Part shown: piece by piece, positions 12 to 63,701 of the stretch
Layout: every line of letters begins with the position of its first letter
Position numbering within the stretch: the stretch's first letter is position 1
DNA from: Promethearchaeota archaeon
GTDB lineage: Archaea > Asgardarchaeota > Lokiarchaeia > Sigyniarchaeales > SOKP01
Assembly (NCBI GenBank): GCA_019057795.1
Contig: JAHLWS010000078.1
Coordinates: forward strand, 128,001 to 192,000
DNA length: 64,000 bases
Direction of reading: 5' to 3'
The notes under the pieces: generated by a model
The model's input: the letters and a program-made list of their open reading frames with translations, nothing else
The model's database searches: none
Told to the model about the DNA's origin: nothing
Position numbers and translations under genes: made by a program

Positions 12-47
12 ATGGGAAAATGGAACCTTCCTCCATCTGGCGGACAC
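12..47 (+). pseudogene. Stranded original 5' end of the creatininase-family gene (MGKWNLPPSGGH)
   Basis: ATG at 12 translates to MGKWNLPPSGGH, matching MTKWNLPPEYSKCRGH at 1887; the frame runs into a stop at 63-65. Confidence 0.8.
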
Positions 48-1934
48 AAATATATAAGAATTTAATTATTTATCCAATCTTTAAGTTTTTGTTCACATTC
101 TCTTTTTAATTTAGGATTATACTTATTCTTCCTCCAATAACCCATTGGTGGTTTATCAATCCTAGATAATTTGCATAACTTATCAATATCCTTAGGTAAA
201 ACTCCTAATATTTTGGCTATTCTATTTTGGGGGATCTCCCATATTATCTCTTCTATATTCTCTTTAGGAATATTGGCTAAATTTTCTCTATTCTGTTCTA
301 ATATAGGAGATTTCTTAATAGCTATAGCAGCTATTCTTGCTCTTTTTATACTTTCCTCTAAAGGAGTAAGATAAATTCTTTTTCTTGGTAAAGAATCTTT
401 ATAATTATCTAAAATTTTATTAAATAGTTGTACTCCTAAGAACAATCTATAAGCATTTACATTTTTATTATCTCTGGTTACTAGATTATCAATGTTAAAT
501 TTTTCTTTAATTTGTTCAAGAAATTTTCGATTTCCCGATGTAATTTTTGAAGTTCCTTTAGTTCCATCACCATCAAAATAACCTAATAGGAAAGCTAGTT
601 CTATTTCACGATTAGGAAGTATAGGGTATTCAATTTTAAGAGATTTGTTAGGAATACAACCATGACTATTTAAATCATCAAACATCCTTTTACTGCTAAT
701 TCGTATACGCACATTATTGTCAATATATTCTTTCTTCTCTTTATTAGCTCCCGAAAAATCAACATACTTATCAATTAATATTTCATCTTTCAAATTTACT
801 TTTAGAGTTACTTTTTTAGATTTAGTATCCTTTTTTATATAAATAGAGCCATCTGAATACATCACACCTAACCAATATCCTTTTTCTTTAGTATTTATTA
901 ATTCAAAACAATTGTCAATTAAATTTGGATGTGCTACATTCTCTCTTAAAACTCGTCGCTTTTCTAACCCTAATTCCTTTTCTTTATCTAGAACATAGTG
1001 ATGATCAATCCATATACTTTTAATATTTTTAAATTTAGCTATATTACTAGCTGCTTTTGTAGTTAACATAAGCTGATCAATTATGTACATCTCAATAATT
1101 CTTTCCTTATTTATAATCTTAACACATTTTAATAATTCTTCCTTGTCTTTATCTAATAAATCTTGATTTGTTTTAATGAAATCAACAAATGCAGGTCTTA
1201 AAACAACTCCTTTATTTGCTTTTTGCTTTCTTTTTTCAAAATAATCATTAAAAAGAGATAATAGCTTTGGATGAAATAATGTATTTTCAAAATAATTTTT
1301 ATCTCTATCCTTCAAATATTTTAGTCTAATTCTATCCAACTGTTCTTTATATTCTATTCTGTTTTCATGAGGATTTTTATCAATTTCTAAACTGCAATCT
1401 GGAATAAAGGTTCTCTCATTATTTTCTTGCATTTCGAGGGAGGGAGTAAAACTTCGCTCTTCATTCTTGATATTGAAGTTTAACTTAGGTGTAAAAGTTA
1501 TATTCACAAAATCTTCAGATATTTCAGCAGAAGGATTGAAGCTAGTAGTTTCTTGTTTAAGATCTGGAGTAAAAAATCTTTCTTTATCCAATTTTGGTAT
1601 TTTTAAAGATGGAAAGAATATATTGTCTTCTTTAGATTTACCTTTGTAAATATCTGAATTATTCTCTTTAGATTTAACCTCTTTCCAACTCTTTCTGTTC
1701 TTATATTCATTACCATATTTGGACATAAAAACTTCCCGTATTTTTTTTAATTGTTGAGAAATTTATTATTATATTCCAGTAAAAAATTTGGAGTGATCTA
1801 AATTTTAAACTTAAAAATCATTATTTCAAATAGAAATAATTTGAAGAATTAATAGTATGATGAAAAAGAAAAATAGGTAAAATTAAATGACAAAATGGAA
1901 TTTACCACCTGAATATAGTAAGTGCAGAGGACAT
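48..1934. mobile_element. LAGLIDADG cassette with replacement promoter and 5' end of the creatininase gene (boundaries approximate)
   Basis: Endonuclease ORF bracketed by two diverged copies of the same gene start. Confidence 0.7.
62..1726 (-). CDS. Free-standing double-motif LAGLIDADG endonuclease with low-complexity N-terminus and C-terminal HTH-like domain
   Basis: Motifs GYWLGVMYSDGSI and AFLLGYFDGDGT; C-terminal IAKILGV...IDKPPMGYW; no intein termini. Confidence 0.85.
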   Translation of the reverse strand: MSKYGNEYKNRKSWKEVKSKENNSDIYKGKSKEDNIFFPSLKIPKLDKERFFTPDLKQETTSFNPSAEISEDFVNITFTPKLNFNIKNEERSFTPSLEMQENNERTFIPDCSLEIDKNPHENRIEYKEQLDRIRLKYLKDRDKNYFENTLFHPKLLSLFNDYFEKRKQKANKGVVLRPAFVDFIKTNQDLLDKDKEELLKCVKIINKERIIEMYIIDQLMLTTKAASNIAKFKNIKSIWIDHHYVLDKEKELGLEKRRVLRENVAHPNLIDNCFELINTKEKGYWLGVMYSDGSIYIKKDTKSKKVTLKVNLKDEILIDKYVDFSGANKEKKEYIDNNVRIRISSKRMFDDLNSHGCIPNKSLKIEYPILPNREIELAFLLGYFDGDGTKGTSKITSGNRKFLEQIKEKFNIDNLVTRDNKNVNAYRLFLGVQLFNKILDNYKDSLPRKRIYLTPLEESIKRARIAAIAIKKSPILEQNRENLANIPKENIEEIIWEIPQNRIAKILGVLPKDIDKLCKLSRIDKPPMGYWRKNKYNPKLKRECEQKLKDWINN

Positions 1935-2867
1935 ATGGACTTACCGGATGGAATTTATCTCCAAAATATGAACATTTCTGAAATTCGAGAACGCGTAAAA
2001 AAAAATGACGTTATAATCATCCCAATCGGGTCTACTGAAAACCACGGTCCAGCAGCTTGTATAGGAGAAGATACATTTTTAGTAACGAGAATGGCTGAAA
2101 TAATAGCGCAAAAAACGGGTTGTACAGTTGCCCAACCAACTTGGTACGGTTCTCATCCATATCATCACGTTGGAATGCCTGGTACCATAATAGTTCCTGA
2201 AGAAACATTTAAGGGACTTTTGCGAGCTATAATGGCTGGTTGTTGGAACATGGGTTTTAGAAAAATGATCCTATTAAATGGTCATGGTCACGAGTATGTT
2301 ATCCCGAGCGCAATTCACGAGTGGGCCAAAAACTATCAATTACCTGCCGTAATTTGTAATGTTAACTGGTATCACGCAATTCCAGAATATTGTAAGGATA
2401 AAGAACACGGAGGCCCTTTTGAAACTCCTTTCGTTCATGCAGATGAAGCAGAAACCTCATTTTCAATGACACTCTTTCCAGAAATGATAAGAAAAATTGA
2501 TTCTAGCGAAGATAACGAAGTTGTTGGATGGATGCCTGATGGACATGTTGATAAAGCTGGAAATATCTATCAAAAACCAATCCGATGGTATGGACAAATA
2601 GGGTTTGGACCAATTGAACTTGCAGCATATCCTGAAGGGCATGTAGGATGTCCAAGTAAAGCAACTTTCGAGAAAGGCGAACCTGGTATGGAGGCTTTTT
2701 TAGATTACTTAGAGAAATTAGTCGTTGATATATTGAAGACTTTTCCACCAGGAAAATTACCCCCTACTGATCAAATTACGCAACGAGATCCGAAAGAAAT
2801 TGAACCGTATTTAAAAGGACCTTTAAATGGTGGAAAAAGTATTTATGAATTGAGATATCCACCTTAA
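1887..2867 (+). CDS. Creatininase/creatinine amidohydrolase family protein (IolN-like)
   Basis: PIGSTENHG, GEDT, LNGHGH and HADEAETS motifs. Confidence 0.85.
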   Translation: MTKWNLPPEYSKCRGHMDLPDGIYLQNMNISEIRERVKKNDVIIIPIGSTENHGPAACIGEDTFLVTRMAEIIAQKTGCTVAQPTWYGSHPYHHVGMPGTIIVPEETFKGLLRAIMAGCWNMGFRKMILLNGHGHEYVIPSAIHEWAKNYQLPAVICNVNWYHAIPEYCKDKEHGGPFETPFVHADEAETSFSMTLFPEMIRKIDSSEDNEVVGWMPDGHVDKAGNIYQKPIRWYGQIGFGPIELAAYPEGHVGCPSKATFEKGEPGMEAFLDYLEKLVVDILKTFPPGKLPPTDQITQRDPKEIEPYLKGPLNGGKSIYELRYPP

Positions 2868-2982
2868 TTATTTTTTTTCTTATTCTATATATCCCAACCT
2901 TTTAGGATAATTTAAAATAATTATTTTATTTCATTGATTTTTAAAAAAAATTTAAAAGAAACTTAAAAAAAAAGTATATAAG

Positions 2983-25525: not shown

Positions 25526-26128
25526 ATGAAGTCAATGGATTCGAAAGACGCAGAAAACGAAACGGAAAAATTAACAAAAGTACTTTCTATTGTTCAAAAT
25601 CTTTACTATAAGAAGAAGGAACAATTAGACGATTTAAAATTAGAAATCTCTGAATTACACATCGTTTTAGATTATTTAAACTCATTGATTTCAAAGCAAT
25701 CGTTTTCAAGTGCAGATGAAATTTATTCGAAGCTTTTAAATCGTGAAGAGAAAACGATTGATGATTATTTTAAAAAAGATATTTCACAGGAAGATTTTAA
25801 TGGAACTAACATTAAAAGAAAAATTTTCTCGAGCAAAAATCAGAATGAAGAAGATTTATTATGTGTGCTTAACCTCTACGACTTTAAAAGAGTTGAGATA
25901 AAATTTATTGATCCTGAAAAAAGGGAGATACAAGAAACTTCAGAGAATTTTATTAACATTTTTCTCAAGGGGGCACTTATTAAAATAAAAGAAAATAACC
26001 CTAATTTGAGCATTAATTACAATTTTTTCAAAAATTCCGATAAAGTTGAATATATTCACATATCTAATTTAAGTTCAATTGAAGACTATGATTTGATAAC
26101 GGACAAAATCCGCGAATTATTATATTAA
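25526..26128 (+). CDS. Hypothetical protein (target of cassette 1; C-terminus probably cassette-supplied)
   Basis: C-terminus VEYIHISNLSSIEDYDLITDKIRELL is repeated at 29325-29417. Confidence 0.7.
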   Translation: MKSMDSKDAENETEKLTKVLSIVQNLYYKKKEQLDDLKLEISELHIVLDYLNSLISKQSFSSADEIYSKLLNREEKTIDDYFKKDISQEDFNGTNIKRKIFSSKNQNEEDLLCVLNLYDFKRVEIKFIDPEKREIQETSENFINIFLKGALIKIKENNPNLSINYNFFKNSDKVEYIHISNLSSIEDYDLITDKIRELLY

Positions 26129-29283: not shown

Positions 29284-29324
29284 TTTCTTATTTCTATCAT
29301 CACATTGGATTAATATTTTAATTA

Positions 29325-38100: not shown

Positions 38101-38686
38101 TCTCCTCTCGTAAACCTTTAAGCCCCATTCCCTCTTCTAAAAAGGAACAGAGTTCGATGGGTTTTAAGCTTTTAATAGTATCGATTTTGCCTTGACTTAC
38201 AAAGGCAAATTGATTATCTGGATTAATTTCTAACTTTGACACAAGTTTTTGAATTTCAATTGCGTGAACCTTTTTGAAATTCTTATCATTTTTTAACTGA
38301 ATCTCAAAAGATGGAGATTTTCCTCTTATTACTGTCCTTCTTATTTTAACTACTTCATTATGGTATTGAATATGAAGTTCCACCATAGCGTGATTTTGCC
38401 CATCTCTTATAAAATCAGACCATTTCTTATAACGCTCGTCTCTTTCGTTACTACCTAAAGCAAACTTAATTGCTTGAAAAATTGATGTCTTCCCGCTCCA
38501 ATTCGGACCGATTATTAAAATAAAGCGAGGTATATCTTGATTTTTCCGAATCAAGAAATCTACTTCGTCTCTTTGAAAAGATAAGAAATTCTCTAAAATA
38601 ACTTTACGGATAAAAACACTATTTTTTATCGCTTGACTTTTATCGTTTTCCTTAACTTTTTTTATAGAAGAAACAGCCGTTTTTTC
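35186..38686 (-). CDS. smc: SMC protein, SMC5/6-like (the frame extends upstream of the ORF track start at 38554; start uncertain)
   Basis: IRKVILENFLSF, GPNWSGKT, NQFAFVSQGKI, hinge GPII, LSGGQ, PLCMFDE; long coiled coils. Confidence 0.85.
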   Translation of the reverse strand, partial: EKTAVSSIKKVKENDKSQAIKNSVFIRKVILENFLSFQRDEVDFLIRKNQDIPRFILIIGPNWSGKTSIFQAIKFALGSNERDERYKKWSDFIRDGQNHAMVELHIQYHNEVVKIRRTVIRGKSPSFEIQLKNDKNFKKVHAIEIQKLVSKLEINPDNQFAFVSQGKIDTIKSLKPIELCSFLEEGMGLKGLREEILQQKNSVFTLNTEFKSLITRKNSLNINLDFLIPKLERLDEKKELLEIRKKYNDELLWANKSMLQKEIEVLELNVKKSQDQINLITNEIDKYQNLIKEKERKISEIDSNLISSSKKVGELNYRKKELVKKIDAWQNEKIKAKQELDILSGKISEYEKVIDKLEKQRQNIISEIDIVKKKKISIKSKIDNLIKEQNEITIKIKENQDFLEKYNQLTYEKENNVRKIQDNENNIKNIKRDINDIFQSLSDIDYKLEKNRWFLENPTKDLLTQLDKDLKKVTVSLFKLISEVEQLEYEKTKKIIKFKLLQTALRERKIVLSANINILKEEIKKRELDDRVKGPIIEYLKYDDELSYAIESVLGERLLNSFIANDWDTLNLVEKLKKKYNAYCNIYIPKDVRVAPLPKIMAQGVIGYLAELIKVVGGDLDVQKVIYSKIKNCVVVRDYLSAKDLYRIHNFKGKCVTLKGKQIISYKYAYESPFIRRLKGLLSPGTQKEQSNLLEKEIESLNDNILELKVKQSQIDKLQGEIFRKKESFNDLLYNFKQKERLTSKKNQFYNLVYSLEQNITETNEKIEDIVKKINELESQKEPEFFKWNERIKEIPIELNNLNNDLKKWDTKLDGNLGTLKDIDVRINPHKNELRILKKDFDSKKVNFKNSDKKAFEIYRKLDAIDDEINKVDAIILSLQDQKIAFYKDKSEIDKMHIQLKLSLEQENFKLSSIKLELGAKKNDLERINSEIGPLISEKKMSIRSIEEINQDILIIDKKLLNYLDVDDSILVEKEQILTGLKEITKNQKDIERDIKAAIKTENKLEETYYNKFKLVLKDLNLKINQKFISANIKAYCTLDLIGNFEELGIDIKAAISKDKLKSCTALSGGQISMISISLILSLQEIKPSPLCMFDEAGMFLDEKNSEASYQMIKTTIEQNAIQMLIFLPKSSNPLYLLADKLIGVARVGKNEVSTIFNPKIVKESK

Positions 38687-41243: not shown

Positions 41244-42330
41244 ATGAAATCAGAAGAACCAAAAGAAGAATCAAAAAAAATTAGTTATTTTGAAAAACTT
41301 CTTCCGTTATGGGTCGCATTATGTATAATAGCGGGCATTATTCTTTCTCAGCTCATCCCTGAAATAAGCGAAGCTATTAATTCTTTACAAATAGGAGGAA
41401 TTTCTATTCCCATTGGAATCTGCTTATTCCTGATGATGTATCCCGCTATGTTGAATCTTCAATTTTCTGAGTTGAAAAAATTAGGTAAAAACCCAAAACC
41501 AATTATATTAACGCTTATATCTAATTGGGTCGTTGCTCCTTTCGTAGGGTTAGCAATGGCAAACATTTTTTTACCTGGATATGAACAGTTAATAGTTGCA
41601 ATCATTCTTCTAAGTTCAAGCCCATGTACTGCTATGGTCCTAATCTGGGGCTGGATGGCAAGAGGGAATCAAGAACAAAATGTAATTAATACTAGTTTAA
41701 ATACGATAACTATCATAATCGGTTATGTCCCTTTAGTCGCATTATTAACAGGCATTAAAAATATTCCTATAGATATCTTTCTTTTGTTGATTTCTTTGGT
41801 GTTTTTTATAGGAGTACCATTATTATTGGGTATAGTTAGTAAAAAAATTATTATTTCAATAAAAGGAGATGCTTGGTTTAACGATGTCTATAGACCAATT
41901 GTAGGAAAAGTTTCGATTGTAGCACTATTAACGACTTTAATTGTTCTTTTTTCCCTAAATGGAACTGTCTTGATAAATAATCCTGATCTGTTGCTCTTAA
42001 TTTCTATACCTCTTTTAGTGGGATTTGTAATTGTTGTTAGTTTTAATATATTAATTACAAAACTCTTTAAGTTGAGATATGAGGAAGCTGTTATTACGGT
42101 TATAATAGGGTCTTCAAGTCATTTTGAAATAGCTATTGCTACTGCGATTGCTATGTATGGGATTGGCTCTATTGCGGCATTAGGAACTACCATGGGACTA
42201 TACGATTCTTAGTTTTACTATGAACGGGTCATTCTGGGAAGTTCCTGTGATGCTATCGATTGTATATTTGGGAGGATACTTAGGAAAACGAGGATTTTGG
42301 GAGAGTTCAAAGAGTAGGATTGAGAAATAA
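41244..42330 (+). CDS. acr3: Acr3 arsenite efflux transporter; predicted join(41244..42201,42233..42330), 351 aa
   Basis: LMMYPAM, SNWVVAP, SPCTAMV, SSHFEIAIA; the last helix FWEVPVMLSIVYL is in frame only after removing 31 nt. Confidence 0.85.
42202..42232 (+). other. Predicted 31-nt BHB mRNA intron in acr3
   Basis: Helix GACT(42196-99)/GGTC(42227-30), bulges ATA and ATT, inner hairpin; cuts after bulge nt 2 give ATG GGA CTA TTC TGG GAA. Confidence 0.75.
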
Positions 42331-42412: not shown

Positions 42413-44971
42413 TTAGATAAATCTTATTATATCACCAAAAGTTTGCCTTAGCTTGTCGATTTGTTTCAGATCTCTCCAATTACATTTAGGAAGTTTTCTA
42501 AGACGATAATTATTCACTTTAAATAATTTCCTTACTTGTTGCTCAAACTCAGAATGTATGAATTCTACGTAGTTATCTCGTCTTATTGTATGATCTACAA
42601 TAATATAAATATCAATATATCCACTATTTTTTAGATTTTGTTTAAAATTATCACTAGATTTTAAATGTTTATAATCGTTGGCATGGGATCCATTTCTAGG
42701 AGTTCTATGCCTGAATCTATCAACATATTCTTCTAGTGAAAAATGCTCGCGATCCCAATATTCCCCTGCAACGCTTAGAGTAAATACATCTTTTCCAATT
42801 TTTATATCGACATAAGCAAAAGCATCAAAATGCATGTGTCTATATCTCCGTAATGATTTATAATCGCTAGGCAAAATATCAACAACCTGATCAAAAGGAA
42901 GAACTTCATATAATGAAGTTGGCCTTTCACCAAAATTCTTATGAAATAATCTTGAAAGTAAATAGCGCATTATCCTTTCATTCGTTATTTTACCTCCCGA
43001 ACATATATCACATGATTTTAGATCTAAACTATAATCATCAGGTTTAGATTTAAATTTAAAACTTGGATGATACTTACAAGACCATAGAAAAACTTCTCTG
43101 GTTGGCTGTTTTAACTTCTCAATATGACTCAACGGGGTTTCCAGATTAAAATTAAATTTATCACCCCGAGCAATTATTTGTTGGCTCGTTAATCTATGAC
43201 TTTCATTATAACATTCAGCACACCAATTATTATAAGATCTAATACGTTCCATGCTAATGCTAAATTCTCCATGTTTATTACAAATAAATGGGAACAGTAT
43301 TTCTGAGACCTTTTGTTGTATATTGCGCGGTTTCTTTAATTCTTGATTTATTCGAGTTTTAAATTCAGTTTTAGTAAATTTAAATCTTGCATTTCTTAAT
43401 TCCGCTTCTTTAACAAAATCTTGATATGAATGGGACTTTTCAATTCTTGAACATAGAGGACATTTAGCGCGATATAAATGTTTGTAAGCAACATTAAATT
43501 TTTCATGGTTGGAACATTTACAAGAAAGTTCAAATAATAAGTTTTCTATTAGAGTTCCTGTCAGCACAGTTTCTAAATATTCAAATATTTTCGTCTCCAT
43601 ATTAAGTCCTAAAGTATTGATTCTACTACAATAGGAATTCCATTTCTCAATTAAGCTAAAAACACGCTTTTCAGCACAAATTAATTTGTAATCAAGTATT
43701 AAATTAAAAAAAACAGTATAATTGCTTGGAAATTCTTGTTTCAGATTAAAAAACCAATTATCTAAAACTTTTTCATCTATTAAGGAGTTAGGTCTCTTAA
43801 ATTTATTAGATTTCAAAGTAGCGAAAGCTAAAGCTTCAGAACCATTAGATGTACCATATAATTTCTCGGCAATTCTATTATCTGGTAAATCTTCTTGATA
43901 TAATTTTATTTGTTTCACTAAATTTACAAGAAAATCTTTCGATATGGAACTACTATTCTTTATATTTGGAAATTGATTCTTAATAAATTCCTTATAATGC
44001 TCTAAAGCTAAAACTTCGATTTTTTTGATTTTTCTTGGTCGATTTTCATTGGTTTGCTTCATGGAATCAAAACCTTCTTTTTCTTTTGGTTTACAATTTT
44101 CTAAATCCACAAATCTTTTTATAAGTTTAATCACATCAGATTTAGTAAATTTCGGAGTTAGCCCATTAGTATAAAATTCATGATATGCAGAAAATCTATC
44201 AAAAGCAGTTACCTTTGATTTCTTAATTTCTTTATTTTCAGGATTTAATCCGAGAAGGGATCTACACGTACCAATGTTTAGGATTTTATCATAATTACTC
44301 TTGATTTCTTTTAAAGTCAGTTCGGTTTTATTTTCTAACGATTTTATTACCTCAATGCCCTTTATTATTTCTTTTTGCCATTCTTTCAAGAAATTTCGAA
44401 GGTTTTTAGAAAGCGGTTTAAGATTTTCATACTCAGAAAAGATTTTCGAATGAACTCGAAGGTGCTTAAGTATCCTCTTATATTGGATGGTTATTTCATC
44501 CATTCCATGTCTAATTGCCTTATTCACGAGATTTGGTTTAGAACTTTCTCCTTTTTTTAGTGCTTTAATCTGTTTTTTAGTCAATTGCTTGAGATATGTA
44601 TTCGAAACCGAGTCCATGTAATATGAAACTATAGGAGCTCCCCTTCCTATTATGATACAATATACCCATCCCTCTATGAACGGGGTAGTTTCATGGGGGA
44701 ATCTTGATTTTACACCCTCAATTAATTCTTGTGGAGGAAGTCCTGCTTTATCAAACAAGCATGCTAACGCAGCATCCACGAAATCACCAATCCTTTCATT
44801 AACATAGACTAAAGGAATGTGATGTTTCTTACATTTAGGATACTTCCCAAAACCAAAAAATCTTAATTTAAGAGGTTTAACTCTAGTCATGAACTCACAC
44901 CCAAAATTTGGACAGATTGCGACTCGATCTTCTCTCACTGTTTTTCGTGATACATTGGTGTATGCTTTCAT
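42413..44971 (-). CDS. Cassette ORF-B copy 2: constant N-terminus, Zn-ribbon repeats and Vsr/PD-(D/E)XK-like nuclease
   Basis: C..H...C..C repeats; NERIMRYLL...HFDAF...VAGEYWDREH. Confidence 0.75.
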   Translation of the reverse strand: MKAYTNVSRKTVREDRVAICPNFGCEFMTRVKPLKLRFFGFGKYPKCKKHHIPLVYVNERIGDFVDAALACLFDKAGLPPQELIEGVKSRFPHETTPFIEGWVYCIIIGRGAPIVSYYMDSVSNTYLKQLTKKQIKALKKGESSKPNLVNKAIRHGMDEITIQYKRILKHLRVHSKIFSEYENLKPLSKNLRNFLKEWQKEIIKGIEVIKSLENKTELTLKEIKSNYDKILNIGTCRSLLGLNPENKEIKKSKVTAFDRFSAYHEFYTNGLTPKFTKSDVIKLIKRFVDLENCKPKEKEGFDSMKQTNENRPRKIKKIEVLALEHYKEFIKNQFPNIKNSSSISKDFLVNLVKQIKLYQEDLPDNRIAEKLYGTSNGSEALAFATLKSNKFKRPNSLIDEKVLDNWFFNLKQEFPSNYTVFFNLILDYKLICAEKRVFSLIEKWNSYCSRINTLGLNMETKIFEYLETVLTGTLIENLLFELSCKCSNHEKFNVAYKHLYRAKCPLCSRIEKSHSYQDFVKEAELRNARFKFTKTEFKTRINQELKKPRNIQQKVSEILFPFICNKHGEFSISMERIRSYNNWCAECYNESHRLTSQQIIARGDKFNFNLETPLSHIEKLKQPTREVFLWSCKYHPSFKFKSKPDDYSLDLKSCDICSGGKITNERIMRYLLSRLFHKNFGERPTSLYEVLPFDQVVDILPSDYKSLRRYRHMHFDAFAYVDIKIGKDVFTLSVAGEYWDREHFSLEEYVDRFRHRTPRNGSHANDYKHLKSSDNFKQNLKNSGYIDIYIIVDHTIRRDNYVEFIHSEFEQQVRKLFKVNNYRLRKLPKCNWRDLKQIDKLRQTFGDIIRFI

Positions 44972-45576
44972 GAAGTCAATCTCTCCTCGAGTTGTTTTTT
45001 TGGATTTCTTATCTTTACTCTTGGTGCTTTTTCTAATAGACTCTCTAATTCTCCTTCTAAACTATGGTAGTTTATTCTAAGTTCCTCATAAAACTCGCTG
45101 AATTGTATATGTAAGCACTTTTTCACTAAACATATGTTTTTTGCCAATACAACTACGAATTTGAGTAAGCTTAGATGATCATGAATGTTCTCATCCGAAA
45201 AATAGTGAATTAAAATGGATATTTTTTCTGTTATTTCTGAAAGTCTGATTATGGGTGTTCTATTATTGTTAAAAAATAGAGATCGTATCCCTTCCTCAAG
45301 AGTTTGAGTGCTGTTTTTTAATTTCTTAAGCATTGTTATGAATTCATGGGTTAATGTTTCTAATTCTTGCTTTCGACTGAAAAATTTATTGTTTCTATAA
45401 TTTTCAGCAAGATGGGGATTGGTCCAAAATCGATATCTTATCACTTCCATCCTATAATTAAAAAAAGTTCGGAGTTGACGTGAAAGTTCTTTTATTTTTC
45501 TTACACCCTCAATCTCATACCAATCATTAAAAATTTCTTCATAATCAGTTTCAAAATCTTCCATATACTCTGTCAT
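44968..45576 (-). CDS. Cassette ORF-A copy 2
   Basis: Homologous to 26255 and 59548; ATGA overlap with ORF-B. Confidence 0.85.
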   Translation of the reverse strand: MTEYMEDFETDYEEIFNDWYEIEGVRKIKELSRQLRTFFNYRMEVIRYRFWTNPHLAENYRNNKFFSRKQELETLTHEFITMLKKLKNSTQTLEEGIRSLFFNNNRTPIIRLSEITEKISILIHYFSDENIHDHLSLLKFVVVLAKNICLVKKCLHIQFSEFYEELRINYHSLEGELESLLEKAPRVKIRNPKKQLEERLTS

Positions 45577-45809: not shown

Positions 45810-45884
45810 GAAGTACCTGTGATGTTATCCATAGTTTACTTAGGAAGATATCTTAAAAAGCGAGGATTTTGGAAATCCAATTGA
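45810..45884 (+). pseudogene. Stranded original acr3 3' end
   Basis: EVPVMLSIVYLGRYLKKRGFWKSN*, ending 21 nt before the next ORF. Confidence 0.85.
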
Positions 45885-45905: not shown

Positions 45906-47609
45906 TTGAATAAAAGAAATACTGTAATAGGTCTGAAAATAATGGCTGTAGCTTTTATGCGTAAATTAGAGGAAGAACCAGAGACTTACGATTCGAAGTT
46001 TACTTCACTTACGAAAGGGGTGAATGTCAATGTTCATAGCTGGGTATTGGATCAAATTCAATCAGATCAATCAATTTTAGAAATTGGGTCTGGGACGGGT
46101 TCATTAGCTTCAAAAATGGTTTCAAAAGGAAATATTGTTGTTGCAATTGATAATAACATTCAAATGATTAATTATGCTAAGCAGAAATACTCAGATACTT
46201 TAAAAAATGGTACGCTGTTGTATCGATTAGGTTCATTTACGGATTTACCCGTTGAAAAGAGATCGTTAGATTTAATTGTCAGCACATTTCTATTATCAGA
46301 ACTTCGCCCGTTAGAGCAACAAATATTTCTTAGAAACGCCTGGAAAGCGTTAAAACCAAATGGTCGCTTGATAATAGCCGCAGAGTTTGTTCCATCAGGG
46401 TTTTGGAAGGTCAATTTTAAAATAAAAAGGTGGTGGTTCAAAAAAAAACTGCGTCGTCTTCGTTTAAAAAGTACCTTTTTAGTTAAATGGTTTTTCAATT
46501 ATATTGAACCATTAGGTTTTAAGATCGGATACCAAAAGAAGTGGAAGCACGGTTCAATTCAAGCAATTGAATTACTTAAAATTAACGATAACGGAGAAGA
46601 CGAACCCGATTATTATCGTCCTAAAACAAAGAAGTTTAAAGGACTAGTTTCGCAATTAAGAATTTATCGATGTCTTTTTACCGGACAGATAGATAGAGTT
46701 CCAATAGAACCTGGAATATATAAATCTGGTAATCCCAATCCCAACTCTCCTATTATCGTAACGGCTAATTATGAGTATACTTATATAAAATTAATGCGTG
46801 ATTTACAAAGTATTGATGCGTGGGTTTTATGTTTGGATTCTAATGGAATTAACGTATGGTGCGCTGCTCGAGGAGATGATTTTGGCAATAAGCAATTACT
46901 AGAAGCCATTGAAGCAACAGATATTCGAGTAGTTTCAGAGAAAAAGACCTTAATTCTCCCCCAACTTTCAGCAGGAGGGGTTGCTATACCTCAATTACCA
47001 GAAAAATTTCCTTTCAAAGTAAAATACGGTCCTGTTTGGTCAAAAGATTTAAAACAATTTTTATCCGAGCGACCAGTCCGAAAACCAGATTCTATGAAAC
47101 TTGCCAAATTTACACTGTCTCATCGTATTCGGGCTGGAATCACACATACTACGTTTTTATTCCGAAAAATCTTTTTAATTCCGATAATTGCAATATTACT
47201 CTCGATTATCGCCTTGAATAACGTCACTATCTTATGGTGGCTTGGAGAATTAGTAATATGGATCGTTCTCTCAAATGCAATAATATCAATCTTCTTTCCA
47301 CTCTCTAAATTTACTCGTAAATTTATTACTAAAGCTGTATTTTTTGGATGTTTTAGCATATTTTTCATAGGGGCAATTTCTTGGATATTTCATAGTTCAT
47401 ATCTATATTTACTCTTGAACTTTGCTATATATTTCTGGATAACATTCTTTTCTACGATGTCTTTTAGCGGTTATACGATGTCAACCAGTCCGAAAGACAT
47501 TCAAGCAGAATATCCTGTTTTTAGAAAAATAAATCTTACTCTAATAATTTTAGTTGTAATTCTATTAGGAATAAATATAATATTTTTTATGTTAAATATA
47601 ATAAATTAA
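45906..47609 (+). CDS. hgcA: Class I SAM methyltransferase fused to an HgcA-like corrinoid protein with TM domain
   Basis: LEIGSGTG; EPGIY.SGNP...SPIIVTANY, GINVWCAARG, LILPQL, YGPV; TM helices; SFSGYTMSTS. Confidence 0.75.
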   Translation: MNKRNTVIGLKIMAVAFMRKLEEEPETYDSKFTSLTKGVNVNVHSWVLDQIQSDQSILEIGSGTGSLASKMVSKGNIVVAIDNNIQMINYAKQKYSDTLKNGTLLYRLGSFTDLPVEKRSLDLIVSTFLLSELRPLEQQIFLRNAWKALKPNGRLIIAAEFVPSGFWKVNFKIKRWWFKKKLRRLRLKSTFLVKWFFNYIEPLGFKIGYQKKWKHGSIQAIELLKINDNGEDEPDYYRPKTKKFKGLVSQLRIYRCLFTGQIDRVPIEPGIYKSGNPNPNSPIIVTANYEYTYIKLMRDLQSIDAWVLCLDSNGINVWCAARGDDFGNKQLLEAIEATDIRVVSEKKTLILPQLSAGGVAIPQLPEKFPFKVKYGPVWSKDLKQFLSERPVRKPDSMKLAKFTLSHRIRAGITHTTFLFRKIFLIPIIAILLSIIALNNVTILWWLGELVIWIVLSNAIISIFFPLSKFTRKFITKAVFFGCFSIFFIGAISWIFHSSYLYLLLNFAIYFWITFFSTMSFSGYTMSTSPKDIQAEYPVFRKINLTLIILVVILLGINIIFFMLNIIN

Positions 47610-58810: not shown

Positions 58811-59401
58811 ATGAATGTAGACGAAATACTTTCAGCTGTAAGAACTTTCGCATATAATAATTCTGAAAATGACGATCTCCATGGTTTTAAACATGTTGAG
58901 CGAGTACTTAATTTATGTGTGCAAATAGGGACTGCTTTAAATGCGAATTTATTAGCAATTAAAATAGCTGCCTTACTTCACGATGTTGGTAGAATTCATG
59001 AGAAAAAAAATGCTGCAAAGAATCACGCTGAGTTATCCGCTGAAATGGCTGAAAAATTTTTACAAAAAACTAACTTCAATATTAACATTGACGATATTGA
59101 AAATATTATTCACAGCATTCGAGCGCATTCTTTTTCGAATAAAATAAAACCTACAACTCTTGAAGCAAAAATATTGTCGGACGCAGATAAACTAGACACG
59201 CTTGGAGCAATAGGTTTATACAGGACAATTATATATTCATTTAAATTGAAAAATGGTGGAATAGAGAAAGTAATTGAACATTTAGAAAAAAAAATAATAA
59301 AATTAAAAGATCGAATGTATTTAGACATTTCAAAAGAAATAGCAAAAGAAAGACAGAAAATTATCTTAGATTTTTATTATGAAATAAAAAAGGAAGTGTA
59401 A
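58811..59401 (+). CDS. HD-domain hydrolase (C-terminus probably cassette-supplied)
   Basis: HGFKHVERV, LLHDVG, DADKLD. Confidence 0.85.
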   Translation: MNVDEILSAVRTFAYNNSENDDLHGFKHVERVLNLCVQIGTALNANLLAIKIAALLHDVGRIHEKKNAAKNHAELSAEMAEKFLQKTNFNINIDDIENIIHSIRAHSFSNKIKPTTLEAKILSDADKLDTLGAIGLYRTIIYSFKLKNGGIEKVIEHLEKKIIKLKDRMYLDISKEIAKERQKIILDFYYEIKKEV

Positions 59402-59547: not shown

Positions 59548-60159
59548 ATGACAAACTATATTGAAGATTCTTATATTGGATCAGAATATGATGATATTTT
59601 TAATGATTGGTATGAAATTGAGGGCGCAAGAAAAATAAAGGAACTTTCACGCCAACTCCGAACTTTTTTCAATTATAAGGCTGAAGTAATAAGATATCGA
59701 TTTCGACCCAGTCCGAATCTTGCCGAAAATGATACAAACACTAAATATTACAGTCGAAAGCAAGAAACTGAATCATTAACTCGTGAATTCATAATCTTGT
59801 TAAAAAAGCTTAAGAAAAATGGACAAACACTTGAGCAAGGGATTCAATCTCTCTTTATTTTCAATGATAAAGCACATTTTAATAAACTTTCAGCCATAAC
59901 TGAGAAATTATCCATGTTACTTCACTATTTTTCAGAAGAAAGCCTTTACATTCATCCTAAATTTCTCAAATTTAGCGTGACATTAGCACAACACCTTTGT
60001 TTAGTGAAAAAATGCTTGAATGCGCAATTTAGCGAATTTTTTGAGGAACTTGAAATAAATTACAACAATTTAGAAGAAGAACTTGAAGACTTAATCGAAA
60101 TCACGCCAATTAAGAAGCAAAAATTAAAAAAGCAACTTGAGGAGAGATTAACTTCATGA
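59548..60159 (+). CDS. Cassette ORF-A copy 3
   Basis: Homologous to the other two copies; ATGA overlap with ORF-B. Confidence 0.85.
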   Translation: MTNYIEDSYIGSEYDDIFNDWYEIEGARKIKELSRQLRTFFNYKAEVIRYRFRPSPNLAENDTNTKYYSRKQETESLTREFIILLKKLKKNGQTLEQGIQSLFIFNDKAHFNKLSAITEKLSMLLHYFSEESLYIHPKFLKFSVTLAQHLCLVKKCLNAQFSEFFEELEINYNNLEEELEDLIEITPIKKQKLKKQLEERLTS

Positions 60160-63100
60160 AAGCATACACAAACGTATCACGGAAAACCGTGGGAGAGGAT
60201 CGAGTAGCAATCTGCCCTAATTTTGGATGCGAGTACATGACACGAGTTAAGCCTCTTAAATTTAAGTTCTTAGGTTTTGGGAAGCATCCTAAATGCAAGA
60301 AACATCACATTCCTTTAGTATTTGTTGATGAAAGAATCGTTGATTTCGTGGATGCTGCCCTAGCGTGCTTGTTTGATAAAGCAGGACTCCCCCCAAGTGA
60401 ATTACTCGAGGGTGTAAAATCAAAATTTCATAATGAAGTTACCTCGCTTGTAGAAGGATGGGTGTATTGCATCACGGCTGGAAGGTGTGTGTCCATTATT
60501 TCACGTTACATGGATACGATTTCTAATGCGTATCTCAAGCAATTAACTAAGAAACAAATTAAGGCACTTAAAAAGGGAGATGATTCAAAACCAAATCTCG
60601 TGAATAAGACGATTAAGGGTGGAATTGATGAAATTACTATTCAATATACGAGGATTCTCAAGCACCTGAGAGCTCATTCCGAGATTCTCATTGATCATCA
60701 AACGCTTAAATCACTTTCTAAAAACCTCCGAAATTATTTGAAGGATTATCAAAAGACCATATTAAAGCGCAATGAGATCATTAATTCTCCAGAAAATAAG
60801 CGCGAAATGAGTTTAAAAGAAATCAAGAGTAATTATGATCAAATCCTAAACGTTGGGACATGCCGTTGTCTTCTTGGATTGAATCCCGAAAGTAAAGGAA
60901 TCAAGAAAGCAAAAATAACTTCATTTGATAGATTTTCTGCTTATCTTGAATTTTTTAGTGAAGGATTAACTGGAAAATTTACAAAATCCGCAATCTGTGA
61001 TTTAGTAAAAACTAAGTTCACTTATCAAGATAATATTGATATACTTGATGAGACAAAATATAAAATACCCTTTCAAAATCAAAAACCTAAAAGTATCATG
61101 ACAGTTAAATGCACTCAAGAAGAACTTCTAGGCAAAATTTTTAAGTTCGGGGAATCTCTACAATTAGGAATTTTAACGATATATTATATTTGTGATATAT
61201 TTCCAAAAAAGAATGAAATTGATAAGTTATTTTTTTCTGGAAAGGAATTAAGTCAGATTCTTAGCAGATCAGAATATTTTTTTAATAATATTAGAAGGGA
61301 ACTGTTAGACGAAAATTTTGTTCAATACTGCGGAACAATTTCTAAAAAAAAACATAGCTTTGTAAAAATTTATACAATTACAAAACAAGGCGCAGATTTT
61401 GCAGCGGAAATTATTGAGTCAAAAATACAAGAATTTTCTAATCTTTTTAATGATTTAACCCTCAGATTAGAACAGCGATATAAAGAATTAATGTCCTCAG
61501 AAAATAACATTGTTATTCGTTCAATAGAAGAAATCAACAATGATTTAAAAAAAAAAGCTGAAGAAAACAATGCTAAAATGCTCACTACATACAAATCTGA
61601 TGAAAATAAAATAATTTTTAGATGTAAGGGATGCAATAAAGAATTTAAAGATATATACAAGAATATGAAAAGAAGACAAGAACCAAAAATAGCTTGCCCT
61701 TTCTGTTTTCCAGAATTAAGACCTAACACTTATATTCCTGAAGAATTAAGAGAAAAAATAGCAAAATATGTTTTAGTTGAATTAAGACAAATTACTATTT
61801 ACAATTTAGTAGAAAAGGAAATTTTAGAAAATATAGTTTCTATAAGAGATTCTGTTTTCAGACAAATAGAAATCAAAAAGGTTCCGATTTTAGACAATAG
61901 AATTCAAGCTGATGCCGATTTTAGACAATATATTAAGAATTATATTCAACTTATCGTTAAGCTTCTTATAAAAATAAAATTATTAAATGAGACCAAACAA
62001 AAAATAAATATTACTGAAGTAGCAAAAGAAACTTATGATAAAAATATAGTTTCCTTAAAATCTTGGGTGGTTTTTTCAACGAAGATTATTCAGTATTTAA
62101 GACAAAATCTTGATTTTAATATTAGATCACGTTATCATGATACATTCCAAAAATCTACTCAAGTATCGATTAGGAATTTTAGGAATTTGTATAAATTAAT
62201 TGATGATATTACAATTACTTATTTGAAAAAAGATTTACAGATGAAAATAGATATTCATTACAATGGAATATGTCAAGGAAATAATGGAACTTGTCAATTC
62301 AATATTGATTACAGATTCTTACCTGCTCTCTCCCATCACCATCTACTCAAAAGTTACAAAAAACTCATAACAAGAAAAGAATTTAAATATATCCTTCCTC
62401 ATACTATTCTAAACTTAAAATTTGAGAGAGCTATTAAATTAATGCAGACTCAAATTGGTGGATTAGGTTTAGCATGTCTGAATTGCCATTTTTCTAAACA
62501 TCATGTAATATATAATTTTTCACCGATTTTTACATTTCTTCAGAAACTATCCTTAGAAAATATCAATGAAAATCCATTAGATGTTTTAATCAAATTGAAG
62601 TCATTAGTAAGCATATATTACAACCAAAAAAAAGAAAAAACTAAAATGTCTAAAAATTACACTCAAGCTCAACAAAAAACAATGATAAAAGATGGTATTA
62701 GAAAATCGACTTTAGCATTCGTTAAAAAAAAATATAGTATTCAGTTTCTATTTGGAAATGATTATGTTTGTCCTATTTGTCGAAAAGCTAATATTAATGA
62801 ACACCTCAATTGTTTTGTTGCTCATCATACTAATGAAGATATTTTTAGAGATGATCTTGAGAAAATAGAATTTGGTAAAGAATATAAAAAAAAGGATATT
62901 GATTGGTTAATTGAAAATCTAATTATTCAAGAATGTGTGTTTATTTGTATAAATTGTCATCAAATGCTTCATGCTGTAAATTTTCGAGATTATGCTCTTA
63001 CTATCTTGGAAAGTAAAACCGATGAGATATTTGTAAGGAATTATTATAGTCAATTAGACAAACAGATAAGTAAATTAAAAAATAGAATCTTAATTTTAAA

Positions 63101-63524
63101 AAAAAAAATTGAAAATCATTTGATTCAAATTCCAAATCCGTTACAGTTAATTTTTGAAAAGGGAGACGGTTTAAAGAGAAATTTAATATGTATTTACTAT
63201 ATTTGTGAAATTTTTTCAAAAGATAAAGAGAATCCTTTCTTTACTTCTGGTGAGTTGAATTTTATTATTAATAAGGTGCGTTCATTTAGGAATTTTAAAC
63301 ATAAATTAATTCATCTTGATTATATACAAGCTGTTGAGAATTTTCAAAGAATTTATCATATTACTCCTAAAGGTAAGGAAAAAGCAAGAGAATTGATTAA
63401 TCAAAAATTAAATGATTTTCCGAAAAGATTCAGAGATTTAATTGATATTTGGGAAAATAATTACGTAAAATATCAGCTAAAGATGAAACAAAATAAGTAT
63501 TTTTTTGGAAAAGAAATTTTATAA
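60156..63524 (+). CDS. Cassette ORF-B copy 3: constant N-terminus, wHTH, Zn ribbon, two HNH-like modules and wHTH
   Basis: LSHHH...ACLNCHFSKH; CPIC...VAHH...ICINCHQMLH; YTITKQG and YHITPKG winged helices. Confidence 0.75.
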   Translation: MKAYTNVSRKTVGEDRVAICPNFGCEYMTRVKPLKFKFLGFGKHPKCKKHHIPLVFVDERIVDFVDAALACLFDKAGLPPSELLEGVKSKFHNEVTSLVEGWVYCITAGRCVSIISRYMDTISNAYLKQLTKKQIKALKKGDDSKPNLVNKTIKGGIDEITIQYTRILKHLRAHSEILIDHQTLKSLSKNLRNYLKDYQKTILKRNEIINSPENKREMSLKEIKSNYDQILNVGTCRCLLGLNPESKGIKKAKITSFDRFSAYLEFFSEGLTGKFTKSAICDLVKTKFTYQDNIDILDETKYKIPFQNQKPKSIMTVKCTQEELLGKIFKFGESLQLGILTIYYICDIFPKKNEIDKLFFSGKELSQILSRSEYFFNNIRRELLDENFVQYCGTISKKKHSFVKIYTITKQGADFAAEIIESKIQEFSNLFNDLTLRLEQRYKELMSSENNIVIRSIEEINNDLKKKAEENNAKMLTTYKSDENKIIFRCKGCNKEFKDIYKNMKRRQEPKIACPFCFPELRPNTYIPEELREKIAKYVLVELRQITIYNLVEKEILENIVSIRDSVFRQIEIKKVPILDNRIQADADFRQYIKNYIQLIVKLLIKIKLLNETKQKINITEVAKETYDKNIVSLKSWVVFSTKIIQYLRQNLDFNIRSRYHDTFQKSTQVSIRNFRNLYKLIDDITITYLKKDLQMKIDIHYNGICQGNNGTCQFNIDYRFLPALSHHHLLKSYKKLITRKEFKYILPHTILNLKFERAIKLMQTQIGGLGLACLNCHFSKHHVIYNFSPIFTFLQKLSLENINENPLDVLIKLKSLVSIYYNQKKEKTKMSKNYTQAQQKTMIKDGIRKSTLAFVKKKYSIQFLFGNDYVCPICRKANINEHLNCFVAHHTNEDIFRDDLEKIEFGKEYKKKDIDWLIENLIIQECVFICINCHQMLHAVNFRDYALTILESKTDEIFVRNYYSQLDKQISKLKNRILILKKKIENHLIQIPNPLQLIFEKGDGLKRNLICIYYICEIFSKDKENPFFTSGELNFIINKVRSFRNFKHKLIHLDYIQAVENFQRIYHITPKGKEKARELINQKLNDFPKRFRDLIDIWENNYVKYQLKMKQNKYFFGKEIL

Positions 63525-63530
63525 GACTAT

Positions 63531-63701
63531 GGATTTACCATTAGAAATAAAGGGGGAATCGAACAAGTAATTAACCATTTGGAAAATAAAATCTTGAAAT
63601 TAAAGGATGGATTGTATTTAGAAGTCTCTAAACAAATCGCAGAAGAGAGAAGTAAAATAATTATAGACTTTTATAACAAAATAAGAGAAGAAATAATGTA
63701 G
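63531..63701 (+). pseudogene. Stranded original 3' end of the HD gene
   Basis: GFTIRNKGGIEQVINHLENKILKLKDGLYLEVSKQIAEERSKIIIDFYNKIREEIM* aligns to NGGIEKVIEHLEKKIIKLKDRMYLDISKEIAKERQKIILDFY. Confidence 0.9.

Follow-up and report, generated by a model that had tools for sequence, protein, structure and literature searches.

Probable free-standing homing-endonuclease cassettes next to duplicated gene ends on a Loki-type Asgard chromosome

In WHO elements of the yeasts Torulaspora and Lachancea (Coughlan et al. 2020, eLife, PMC7282813), a free-standing endonuclease gene adjoins its target FBA1, and each integration swaps the 3′ end of that gene for a resistant allele and pushes the old 3′ end downstream as a fragment. 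The displaced fragment may act as a homology arm, elements and fragments decay, and trees of the 5′ and 3′ parts of the gene conflict (PMC7282813). Hybrid genes are also formed by fungal mitochondrial mORFs, in atp6 of Allomyces (cited in PMC3630166) and in atp6, atp9, cox2 and nad3 of Glomus (PMC3630166). There, an inserted foreign C-terminus is followed by the endonuclease ORF and then by the native C*-terminus, identity to a close relative being 91-98% for the native and 64-81% for the inserted copy (PMC3630166). Product structure and 5′/3′ tree conflict define both the WHO elements (PMC7282813) and the mORF hybrids (PMC3630166). In the intronless homing of T4-like phages, free-standing Seg and Mob endonucleases (reviewed in PMC2988022; for mobE see PMC2790892) are encoded between or beside genes and cut the neighbouring gene in genomes which lack them, whereupon flanking resistant sequence is co-converted (PMC2988022). 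In collaborative homing, a free-standing endonuclease is combined with an ORF-less intron in its target, as in cyanophage F-CphI and the psbA intron (family: PMC6083498).

The window analysed here, a stretch of 64,000 nt, contains five cassettes (c1 to c5), each adjoining a gene of which one end is present in two diverged copies. All five pairs reported in the first-pass annotation could be confirmed. We consider it probable that the cassettes are free-standing homing-endonuclease genes, one being of the LAGLIDADG type (c1), one carrying a double HNH (c3), and three belonging to a Loki-specific two-gene family (c2, c4, c5). The designation as nuclease loci is backed by Pfam domains for c1, c2 and c3 (LAGLIDADG_3, HNH_3); for the C-termini of c4 and c5, Pfam profile searches detected no nuclease family. 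A 1122-aa ORF at 35186-38554 was considered as a further cassette and rejected, as it codes for SMC. Comparison with related genomes (labelled G0xx, the genome of this archaeon being G000) identifies the stranded copy as native and the fused copy as foreign in c1, c3 and c5, while c2 is an exception to this simple polarity and c4 is uninformative; the proposal that the stranded piece is the original thus holds for three of the five.

Cassette c3 adjoins a GTPase gene (30416-31048, forward strand) and consists of a 797-aa free-standing endonuclease ORF with double HNH_3 and HTH families according to Pfam (31171-33564, reverse strand). Behind it lies the native GTPase 3′ end, now stranded (33680-33986, forward strand), with 101 codons which are still open. 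The two copies (30745-31058 and 33680-33988) share 65% of their nucleotides and 58% of their residues over 103 positions (E 7e-37). The N-terminal part of the gene groups with G020, G044, G056 and G042 (91% nucleotide identity), as does the stranded end (93% to G020), and the fused end clusters with G008 (80%). That G008 has a natural GTPase allele of this kind and no cassette is a point against the homing reading. The allele switch is found at about 30697, some 50 nt before the duplicated part begins, and the foreign G008-like tract extends from there to 31048, with 30745-31048 being duplicated. Replacement ends had been described as recoded; they are instead foreign alleles imported by recombination.

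The GTPase gene was matched in 36 of the 40 genomes of the genus and is uninterrupted in those listed whole, so that empty sites are the rule; of the 36, G000 alone carries a further, partial copy on the contig that holds the gene. In G044 and G020, which have empty sites, homology to the c3 locus begins exactly at 33680 and continues at 94.5%. The empty alleles that had been called for were also found in two independent public metagenome studies, where cassette contigs spanning both junctions coexist with contigs joining the gene body at about 30700 straight to 33680, the contig sides at these empty-form joints being short (25 and 33 letters in the two runs). In X3, cassette depth is about 6.6 versus flank depths of 15-129. 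These data support a presence/absence polymorphism of c3 in public metagenomes.

In c1, the duplicated part is the 5′ end of a creatininase gene. A stranded native end (1-47, forward strand), with native upstream region and codons 1-12, precedes a 554-aa free-standing LAGLIDADG endonuclease ORF (62-1726, reverse strand; LAGLIDADG_3 at 27.6 bits, cut-off 22.5). A replacement upstream region and 5′ end (1727-1934, forward strand) with 16 codons, 4 above native, is fused to the creatininase gene (1887-2867). The copies at 12-47 and 1887-1934 have 8 of the first 8-9 residues in common (local tblastn, E 3e-4), a match too short to stand by itself that was validated through the genes of relatives. 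In protein and upstream motif, the stranded end is identical to G009 (99% overall at the protein level) and G056 (97%), where the gene is uninterrupted; the replacement N-terminal variant resembles that of G016 and is unlike those of the nearest relatives. Across the genus, creatininase varies in length between its PP and GH residues. No match to the c1 endonuclease was found at 19 of the 20 creatininase loci examined in relatives; at the remaining one, in G041, a weak remnant lies upstream of the gene.

Cassette c5 is associated with an HD-domain gene (58811-59401) that has a replacement end (59231-59401). It codes for a small module protein of 203 aa (59548-60159) and a large protein of 1122 aa (60156-63524), in which the N-module is followed by two CxxC...HH...CxxCH motifs that look HNH-like by eye and have no Pfam match. 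The stranded native 3′ end (63531-63701; all on the forward strand) shares 91% of its nucleotides with the gene end of G056, where the gene is uninterrupted. The pair (59229-59395 and 63519-63692) is 73% identical in nucleotides and 61% in residues over 56 positions. The replacement end, which forms a long branch in the tree, is identical in 165 of 165 nt between G000 and G044 and differs in G020 by a branch of 0.007, while the gene bodies of these three genomes are 94% identical at best. Cassette decay and loss are apparent from the sequences of relatives, as the orthologue of the large protein in G020 carries stop codons and the HD gene of G005 is a chimera of replacement and native types.

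Taken together, the comparisons of c1, c3 and c5 with relatives and the polymorphism of c3 uphold the core of the first-pass annotation, namely that free-standing endonuclease cassettes would enter a host gene and a second, diverged end would keep it intact.

The polarity differs in c2, where the host gene (25526-26128) codes for a 200-aa protein without family assignment and the proximal end copy (26031-26128) runs into intergenic DNA to about 26196. The small module protein (26255-26869, 204 aa) is 66-71% identical to its c4 and c5 counterparts, and the large protein (26866-29283, 805 aa) combines the N-module (residues 1-285) with a double HNH_3 C-terminus (Pfam, 36.7 bits). The distal copy (29312-29417; all on the forward strand) has an in-frame stop. 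The pair (26031-26122 and 29312-29402) is 72% identical in nucleotides and 77% in residues over 26 positions (local search, E 1e-8); the duplication extends into intergenic DNA for about 110 nt after the stop codon, and 76 nt are deleted inside the proximal copy of G000. This proximal copy is 93% identical in nucleotides to the gene of G020, the only close cassette-free relative, the match taking in 40 nt after the stop. The distal copy is 90-92% identical to the sister-clade alleles of G043, G008, G011, G046 and G050 and 73% to G020. An empty allele thus matches the gene-proximal copy, an outcome that the first-pass annotation had listed as refuting its model.

Cassette c4 follows an acr3 gene (41244-42330, forward strand) that includes a 31-nt insert (42201-42231, forward strand, 6 nt from the duplication boundary) and the proximal end copy (42232-42330). 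A large protein of 852 aa (42413-44971), with the N-module and a C-terminus that lacks a Pfam match and shows a Vsr/PD-(D/E)xK-like motif by eye only, and a small module protein of 202 aa (44968-45576), compared with those of c2 and c5, are encoded on the reverse strand. The distal copy (45810-45884, forward strand) lies 21 nt before the next ORF (45906-47609), a putative hgcA according to the first-pass annotation. About 20 of 23 residues are identical by eye between about 42235-42300 and 45810-45872; either copy is 71-80% identical to relatives, so their origins are not told apart. The insert shifts the proximal copy out of the reading frame of acr3, whose ORF stops at 42212, and deletion of 42201-42231 restores the C-terminus found in 27 of 27 uninterrupted acr3 genes read in relatives. 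The insert is confined to three cassette-bearing genomes (G000, G044, G005). Its predicted fold (outer helix, bulge, 4-bp helix, bulge, inner helix) makes it a candidate for a tRNA-intron-like, BHB-like mini-intron.

Misassembly, raised earlier as an alternative, is not borne out, as the layout of c2, c4 and c5 recurs in the independent assembly G044, that of c5 in G020 and that of c4 in G005.

We propose that each cassette resides beside one target gene, the adjacent end of which is an allele that its nuclease would not cut. On meeting a cassette-free genome, the nuclease would cut inside the target gene near that end, and repair of the break would copy the nuclease gene and, with it, the resistant end from the donor. 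The near side would be resolved through homology of the gene body, and the crossover at about 30697 in c3 appears to represent such an event. Where the donor has far-side homology, a clean insertion would result; where it has none, the break may be joined without homology, and the recipient's own end, from the cut onward, would be stranded behind the cassette. Donor-like contigs with different far-side neighbours suggest such joining. The stranded piece could later provide a homology arm through which the cassette spreads to closely related genomes, in the manner suggested for WHO elements of yeast, and cassettes may subsequently decay or be removed when the two copies recombine. DNA recognition and cleavage in the two-gene family would be provided by the variable C-terminus.

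Nuclease type tracks the target gene beyond the window. P0122 and P0124, which are 75-77% identical to the c3 nuclease, are convergent to a GTPase gene at a distance of 7-24 nt in 3 metagenome contigs, and P0065, a c2-type cassette from another assembly, occupies the same site after the c2 host gene. In metagenome contigs, homologues of the c2- and c3-type nucleases adjoin the same target gene without a stranded piece, and stranded pieces are thus likely to be scars of particular invasions and not an obligatory part of the element.

The cassettes might also be passive cargo: homology-facilitated illegitimate recombination by the host, with homology on one side and illegitimate joining on the other, would strand the gene end, and nucleases are merely common in mobile DNA. 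The c2 locus fits this, as a complete native gene is followed by a foreign block of cassette and gene-end fragment. A genome-wide scan found 46 displaced gene-end fragments in the geometry of the model versus 15 in the reverse geometry, and many of the intervening genes do not code for nucleases (HepT/MNT pairs, alpha/beta hydrolases, GH4, GNAT, MFS transporters, NTP-transferase), so that such scars may arise without a dedicated nuclease. However, all five cassettes of the window code for a nuclease or for a member of a family with mostly nuclease or DNA-binding C-termini. The copy boundaries fall within conserved coding motifs, and the working copy is altered exactly there by 4 additional codons in c1, by one additional codon and changes of most flanking residues in c5, and by the 31-nt insert in c4. 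In addition, linkage of the c3-type nuclease to the GTPase gene persists where the surroundings are unrelated. Boundary placement, boundary indels and lasting linkage are the pattern expected of a site-specific cutter and not of random cargo, and we regard the passive explanation as unlikely.

The module of c2, c4 and c5 consists of a small protein of about 200 aa that is predicted to bind a 285-aa N-terminal domain (73-79% identical between c2 and c4 or c5), which is fused to at least 20 unrelated C-termini. The c2 small protein has an all-helical AF2 model (pLDDT 82), and its predicted complex with the N-module reaches an ipSAE of 0.73 (best of 3 controls, 0.00), a value that 58 of 80 solved complexes attain in the benchmark, as do 2 of 110 mismatched pairs. 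Contacts agree between runs to at least 71%, with a partner pLDDT of at least 72. The small helical protein thus probably binds the conserved domain; the conserved module has no known fold. Altogether, 195 module proteins were detected (E<=0.001), and the best 120 of these include about 20 unrelated C-terminal clusters. Their distribution is patchy (0-9 copies per genome, in 13 of 24 genomes of the genus).

Such a layout recalls polymorphic effector systems with a conserved N-terminus, swappable C-termini that include RNase_T and forms with winged-helix domains only, and a predicted partner. The module could accordingly be a defence or addiction system (conserved sensor or partner, variable nuclease effector) in variable regions, the duplications having arisen by other recombination. 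Flanking duplications (E<=1e-3) are missing around most copies, namely 16 of the 19 two-gene cassettes in relatives and all three others in this genome, and the stranded piece is no constant part of the element as had been assumed. In orthologous cassettes, the flanks are more conserved (94-95% of nucleotides) than the module part (58-78%), which suggests that the copies recombine with one another. On the other hand, c5 follows the pattern of c1 and c3, with a native stranded and a foreign fused end, and P0065 sits at the same site as c2 in another assembly. Most C-termini are nuclease or DNA-binding domains, among them LAGLIDADG plus intein-type and HNH heads, which are typical of homing nucleases. 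A defence or addiction role therefore seems rather improbable to us.

Integrative elements of the integrase type that bring a new end for the gene they enter, as phage 21 or e14 does in icd, would yield an equal product (gene with element-derived end, element, displaced host end), and the module without known fold leaves room for an unrecognised recombinase if none is encoded elsewhere, but we consider them highly improbable, because the search of all cassette ORFs against Pfam and NCBIfam gave zero matches to recombinase or transposase families, in agreement with the first-pass annotation, no identical core sequence is common to the two boundaries of the cassettes in the pairs compared, the module is wholly absent from c1 and c3, c2 and c5 are oriented differently from c4 with respect to the gene end, and c3 is joined on its left by a homologous crossover that lies upstream of the duplicated part.

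Homing by free-standing endonucleases with replacement of a gene end, as favoured here, is not a new kind of system, since the same working is known from fungal mitochondrial mORF hybrids (PMC3630166) and yeast WHO elements (PMC7282813), and the intronless homing of T4 also belongs to this known kind. What is new is the occurrence of several gene-end-replacing cassettes close together on one Asgard chromosome of the Loki type (5 in 64 kb), and the previously undescribed, Loki-specific two-protein module used by three of them. As in collaborative homing, the working acr3 copy of c4 has a small insert by the putative cut site, and only where the cassette is present; the insert, however, is no group I intron but a 31-nt tRNA-type (BHB-like) candidate with putative splicing. 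Three loci without a duplication (L221, L223 and L225) resemble the intronless homing of T4, which however takes place during co-infection, normally leaves no stranded duplicated end, and involves GIY-YIG endonucleases or HNH of other families. The mORF hybrids have the same layout, with comparable identities (here 91-93% for native and 80% or less for inserted copies), but they are organellar, with an ORF that is frequently in phase, whereas the cassettes described here are chromosomal, have ORFs on either strand, include a two-protein module, and lack the stranded copy at many related loci. The layout features of WHO elements are matched by c3 and c5, with a putative cleavage step. WHO proteins are intein-derived LAGLIDADG zinc-finger fusions with meiotic homing in a diploid eukaryote; the cassettes in this archaeal chromosome, in contrast, involve several nuclease classes, show no tandem clusters at a single site and include, with c1, a 5′-end version.

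The assembly of the source genome (G000), a Loki-type Asgard archaeon, comprises 4.95 Mb in 87 contigs, and five cassettes are found in the window (G000:C78:128001-192000). Each of the five is flanked by two copies of one end of a neighbouring gene; one copy is joined to the working gene and is here called the replacement or proximal copy, and the other lies stranded across the cassette. Cassette c1, at the 5′ end of a creatininase gene, is a single ORF on the minus strand (62-1726, 554 aa), in which Pfam detects a single LAGLIDADG_3 domain (PF14528, 27.6 bits, cut-off 22.5). Cassette c2, beside a gene for a 200-aa hypothetical protein, has two plus-strand ORFs (26255-26869 and 26866-29283; 204 and 805 aa) and carries HNH_3 (PF13392, 36.7 bits, cut-off 24.8). 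The same domain (30.5 bits) occurs together with an HTH domain in c3, a minus-strand ORF beside a GTPase gene (31171-33564, 797 aa); in c2 and c3, the HNH unit is present as two internal repeats. Two-ORF cassettes are also found beside acr3 (c4, minus strand, 44968-45576 and 42413-44971; 202 and 852 aa) and beside an HD gene (c5, plus strand, 59548-60159 and 60156-63524; 203 and 1122 aa). Another ORF of 1122 aa (35186-38554) was rejected as a cassette because it codes for SMC.

The first-pass annotation had placed all five duplicated ends accurately, and its description of the paired ends as similar in protein and changed in DNA is borne out (65-73% nucleotide identity where alignable). It had also listed five nuclease loci. 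The duplications do flank all five, but a nuclease domain is recognised by Pfam only in c1, c2 and c3, where it directly adjoins the target gene. In the C-termini of c4 and c5, Pfam finds no nuclease domain and nuclease-like motifs were read by eye only; neither Pfam at E<=5 nor a sequence search of PDB gave a meaningful match for these C-termini.

The clearest of the five cases is c3. The GTPase gene was matched in 36 of 40 genus genomes and is uninterrupted in those listed whole; G000 is the only one of the genus genomes searched in which the contig carries another, partial copy. When trees were computed separately, as had been suggested for replacement and stranded ends, gene body and fused end were found to conflict. 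In the G000 gene, codons 1-94 cluster with the relatives G020, G044, G056 and G042 (91% nucleotide identity to G020), as does the stranded piece (93% to G020); the fused gene end groups with G008 (80%). Homology to the empty site of G044 and G020 restarts exactly at 33680, with 94.5% identity over 1.8 kb. Inside the GTPase gene, the sequence type switches from G020/G044 to G008 at ca. 30697, 50 nt ahead of the duplication boundary, and the left junction of c3 is therefore a homologous crossover.

The c3 region was compared with contigs from four public runs, which represent four studies. Long contigs span the cassette at both junctions with few or no differences, which answers an initial concern about misassembly. 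Empty alleles had been predicted, and the gene body indeed runs into the stranded-type end, both in relatives and in public contigs: in two studies, a contig joins ca. 30700 straight to 33680. The two sides of this joint are only 25 and 33 letters long, so that this is good, though not final, evidence that occupied and empty c3 alleles coexist in public metagenomes. In one run (X3), cassette depth is ca. 6.6 compared to 15-129 for the flanks. Other joints (30834 to 33887, and skips of 32154-33595 and 32840-33662) were discarded, being out of register or within the nuclease gene. Some public-run contigs omit 821-1440 nt of the N-terminal acidic region of the nuclease gene (window 32154-33662), and homologues of the nuclease have 485-714 aa compared to 797 aa in G000, which suggests that shorter natural variants occur. 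The G024 assembly breaks within the GTPase gene, and the end of its contig C377 and the start of C332 overlap at codons 100-124, the insertion point of c3. This may reflect a mixture of occupied and empty alleles.

An equivalent chimera is found for c5, which is carried by G000, G044 and G020. G056 and G042 each have one full-length match to the HD gene, and a cassette was not seen there. At the nucleotide level, the stranded end and the end of the empty gene from G056 are 91% identical. The replacement end is identical between G000 and G044 (165 of 165 nt), near-identical in G020 (branch 0.007) and placed on a long branch; the bodies of these three genes are at most 94% identical. Phylogenies of body and end conflict also in this case. 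The large c5 ORF of G020 contains stop codons. In G005, the HD gene itself is chimeric, with about 20 residues of the replacement type followed by the native type, which is the product expected from recombination between the two end copies.

For c1, the closest relatives (G009, 99%, and G056, 97% protein identity) do not have the cassette. Their genes share the upstream motif and, exactly, the 12 initial residues with the stranded piece at 1-47. In G000, the working creatininase has a start that is four codons longer and resembles that of G016, with a different upstream region, and identity comparison shows this gene to be chimeric. Cassette c1 is thus the same kind of event at a 5′ end.

The stranded copy had been taken to be the native one. 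This holds for c1, c3 and c5, where it matches the empty alleles, but not for c2; for c4, the two end copies (25 codons) are equidistant from all relatives (71-80%). In the case of c2, it is the proximal copy that has its counterpart in a cassette-free genome, G020 (93% nucleotide identity, including 40 nt past the stop codon), which is the pattern that had been named as speaking against the proposal. The duplication runs ca. 110 nt beyond the stop codon. An in-frame stop is present in the distal copy, which, like the ca. 100 nt behind it, is 90-92% identical to the alleles from G043, G008, G011, G046 and G050. The left junctions of G000 and G044 are unlike each other, with a 76-nt deletion in the proximal copy of G000. 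Two scenarios are conceivable: a sister-clade donor supplied the distal fragment along with the cassette, or the cassette has been lost by G020. Loss was considered since, in the GTPase tree, relatives with the cassette surround G020, but its own downstream region differs from the region behind the distal copy. The host gene of c2 has one in-frame TAA/TAG in six sister-clade genomes (G043, G011, G046, G050, G004 and G008), where it could be a pseudogene, contain a mini-intron or be subject to recoding.

The proximal copy of c4 is out of frame with acr3 due to a 31-nt insert (42201-42231), located 6 nt from the duplication boundary. It occurs only in the cassette-bearing genomes G000, G044 and G005, where acr3 ends early, and is absent from the 27 uninterrupted relatives that were read; upon its deletion, the C-terminus found in these 27 relatives is restored. 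The minimum-free-energy fold of the insert has an outer helix, a 4-bp helix with a bulge on either side, the two being located on opposite strands, and one additional opposing bulge; for the 71-nt context, z is -2.5. This predicted helix-bulge-helix-bulge-helix shape is close to that of a tRNA-type intron, for which the canonical BHB motif has a 3-nt bulge, a 4-bp helix and a 3-nt bulge, and makes the insert a candidate tRNA-type (BHB-like) mini-intron.

The two-gene cassettes c2, c4 and c5 have a module in common, which consists of the small ORF (63-71% protein sequence identity) and the first ca. 285 residues of the large ORF (N-module, 73-79%), while the C-termini (heads) are unrelated. There are 6 copies of the module in G000 and 0-9 copies per genome in the genus, with 13 of 24 genomes having at least one; outside the genus, one weak match was obtained in 16 genomes searched. 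A database search retrieved 195 N-module proteins at E<=0.001, and all source names that were seen refer to Asgard metagenome bins, mostly from Promethearchaeota/Loki. The best 120 of these 195 have about 20 unrelated C-terminal clusters, including HNH_3, LAGLIDADG_3 with intein-splicing domains, PDDEXK_5, RNase_T, zinc ribbons and winged helices. The module matches no Pfam or NCBIfam family. AlphaFold models are confident for the N-module (pLDDT 85), which begins with a zinc ribbon, and for the small protein (82), and both are helical. Foldseek searches with both models against PDB gave nothing at E<=0.001; for the N-module, an ESM Atlas feature search gave no usable match and a wide VIA-align search only generic helical pairs (best Z 5.7), so that no fold is named. 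The small protein is predicted to form a complex with the N-module: ipSAE is 0.73, with 0.00 for the best of three controls, at least 71% contact agreement between runs and a partner pLDDT of at least 72. Among 80 solved complexes, 58 attain this ipSAE mark, compared to 2 of 110 mismatched pairs. Between orthologous cassettes from G000 and G044, the module part is only 58-78% identical compared to 94-95% for the flanks, which suggests exchange among cassettes. A wider proposal, which we put forward tentatively and consider rather unlikely, is that small protein and N-terminal domain form a portable homing chassis, specific for Loki-type Asgard archaea, that accepts heads of any kind for DNA recognition or cleavage (at least 20 are seen), and that tRNA-type mini-introns can also be brought into protein genes by such cassettes, where they would shield the cut site, as in acr3. 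If true, cassette-borne mini-introns would be a concrete route for the spread of such introns into Asgard coding genes.

The cassettes c2, c4 and c5 are each common to two to four close relatives, and related loci were also found elsewhere. Three metagenome contigs encode the two homologues closest to the c3 nuclease (75-77% identical), in convergent orientation to an intact GTPase gene and 7-24 nt from it; there is no stranded copy, and the genes on the far side differ. In another assembly, a c2-type cassette separates the intact host gene from the next gene, again with no second copy. Flank duplications were detected at E<=1e-3 for 3 of 19 further two-gene cassettes of relatives and for none of the three other module cassettes of G000 (C54, C78:122307 and C41). 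They are also absent from four other LAGLIDADG/HNH ORFs of G000 (C24, C78:109703, C75 and C70), some of which may be inteins. A relaxed test (E<=0.5) gave only noise. Since homologues reside beside intact target genes and flanks are mostly unduplicated, the nuclease remains linked to its target gene, and the stranded piece is a scar that only certain invasions have left. One-sided homology during invasion may explain why this piece starts at the expected cut. The module cassette at C78:122307-125818 (229 and 947 aa, N-module 37% identical) lies just before c1, ca. 2.2 kb upstream of the window, so that C78:118000-192000 contains six cassettes. A seventh nuclease ORF (LAGLIDADG, C78:109703-110956) follows 8 kb further upstream. 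At window position ca. 41070, G000 lacks ca. 7.9 kb that are present in G044 (C46:16412-24311) between syntenic blocks of 94-95% identity.

The strongest competing explanation is passive cargo, as displaced gene ends might be left by host recombination alone. A genome-wide scan for nuclease ORFs within partial duplications had been suggested, and in G000 ca. 46 displaced gene-end fragments were found in insertion-like geometry compared to 15 in the reverse one. They are located 0.7-9 kb from their own gene (e.g. C15:22643-25036, C62:14111-16951, C60:25344-28064 and C82:121511-124920). Many of the intervening genes are not nucleases: they code for HepT/MNT toxin-antitoxin pairs, alpha/beta hydrolases, GH4, GNAT, MFS and NTP-transferase proteins, and some gaps hold ORFs that belong to no family. 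Either such cargo uses the same route as the nuclease cassettes or host recombination alone leaves these scars, and the passive-cargo explanation thus stays alive. An integrase-driven element with a replacement end, as phage 21 or e14 in icd, fares worse: as had been noted initially, the cassettes match no recombinase (tyrosine or serine) or transposase family in Pfam and NCBIfam, and there is no identical att core at their boundaries. Inteins and group I introns, already dismissed in the first pass, do not fit the ORF layout, as the cassettes are separate ORFs on either strand, outside the working ORF and with their own start and stop codons.

In summary, the finding of the first-pass annotation is real and its reading was mostly correct. 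Judged from sequence, home-and-replace selfish elements would be active in Asgard chromosomes, and the evidence for occupied alleles side by side with empty ones in marine sediments is good, though not final. Chimeric genes from such elements can mislead single-gene phylogenies, in a lineage for which much depends on gene trees. With its swappable heads, the two-protein module is a natural library of candidate nucleases with long targets, and the link between cassette and mini-intron provides an idea for the entry of tRNA-type introns into protein genes.

To our knowledge, experimental evidence for home-and-replace elements has so far come only from the nuclei of yeasts and the mitochondria of fungi. 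No description of such cassettes from Asgard or Lokiarchaeal genomes was found in the literature searched, including two papers on Asgard mobile elements. What is new is the occurrence of several cassettes close together in an Asgard chromosome, the two-protein module with swappable heads, the 5′-end case (c1) and the cassette-linked candidate mini-intron (c4). The system itself, initially considered to be a candidate new selfish one, is of a known kind. In product structure, in conflicting trees and in the part played by the downstream fragment, it corresponds to the gene hybrids with mORFs in fungal mitochondria (PMC3630166) and to the yeast WHO elements (PMC7282813); the duplication-free loci resemble the intronless homing of T4-like phages.
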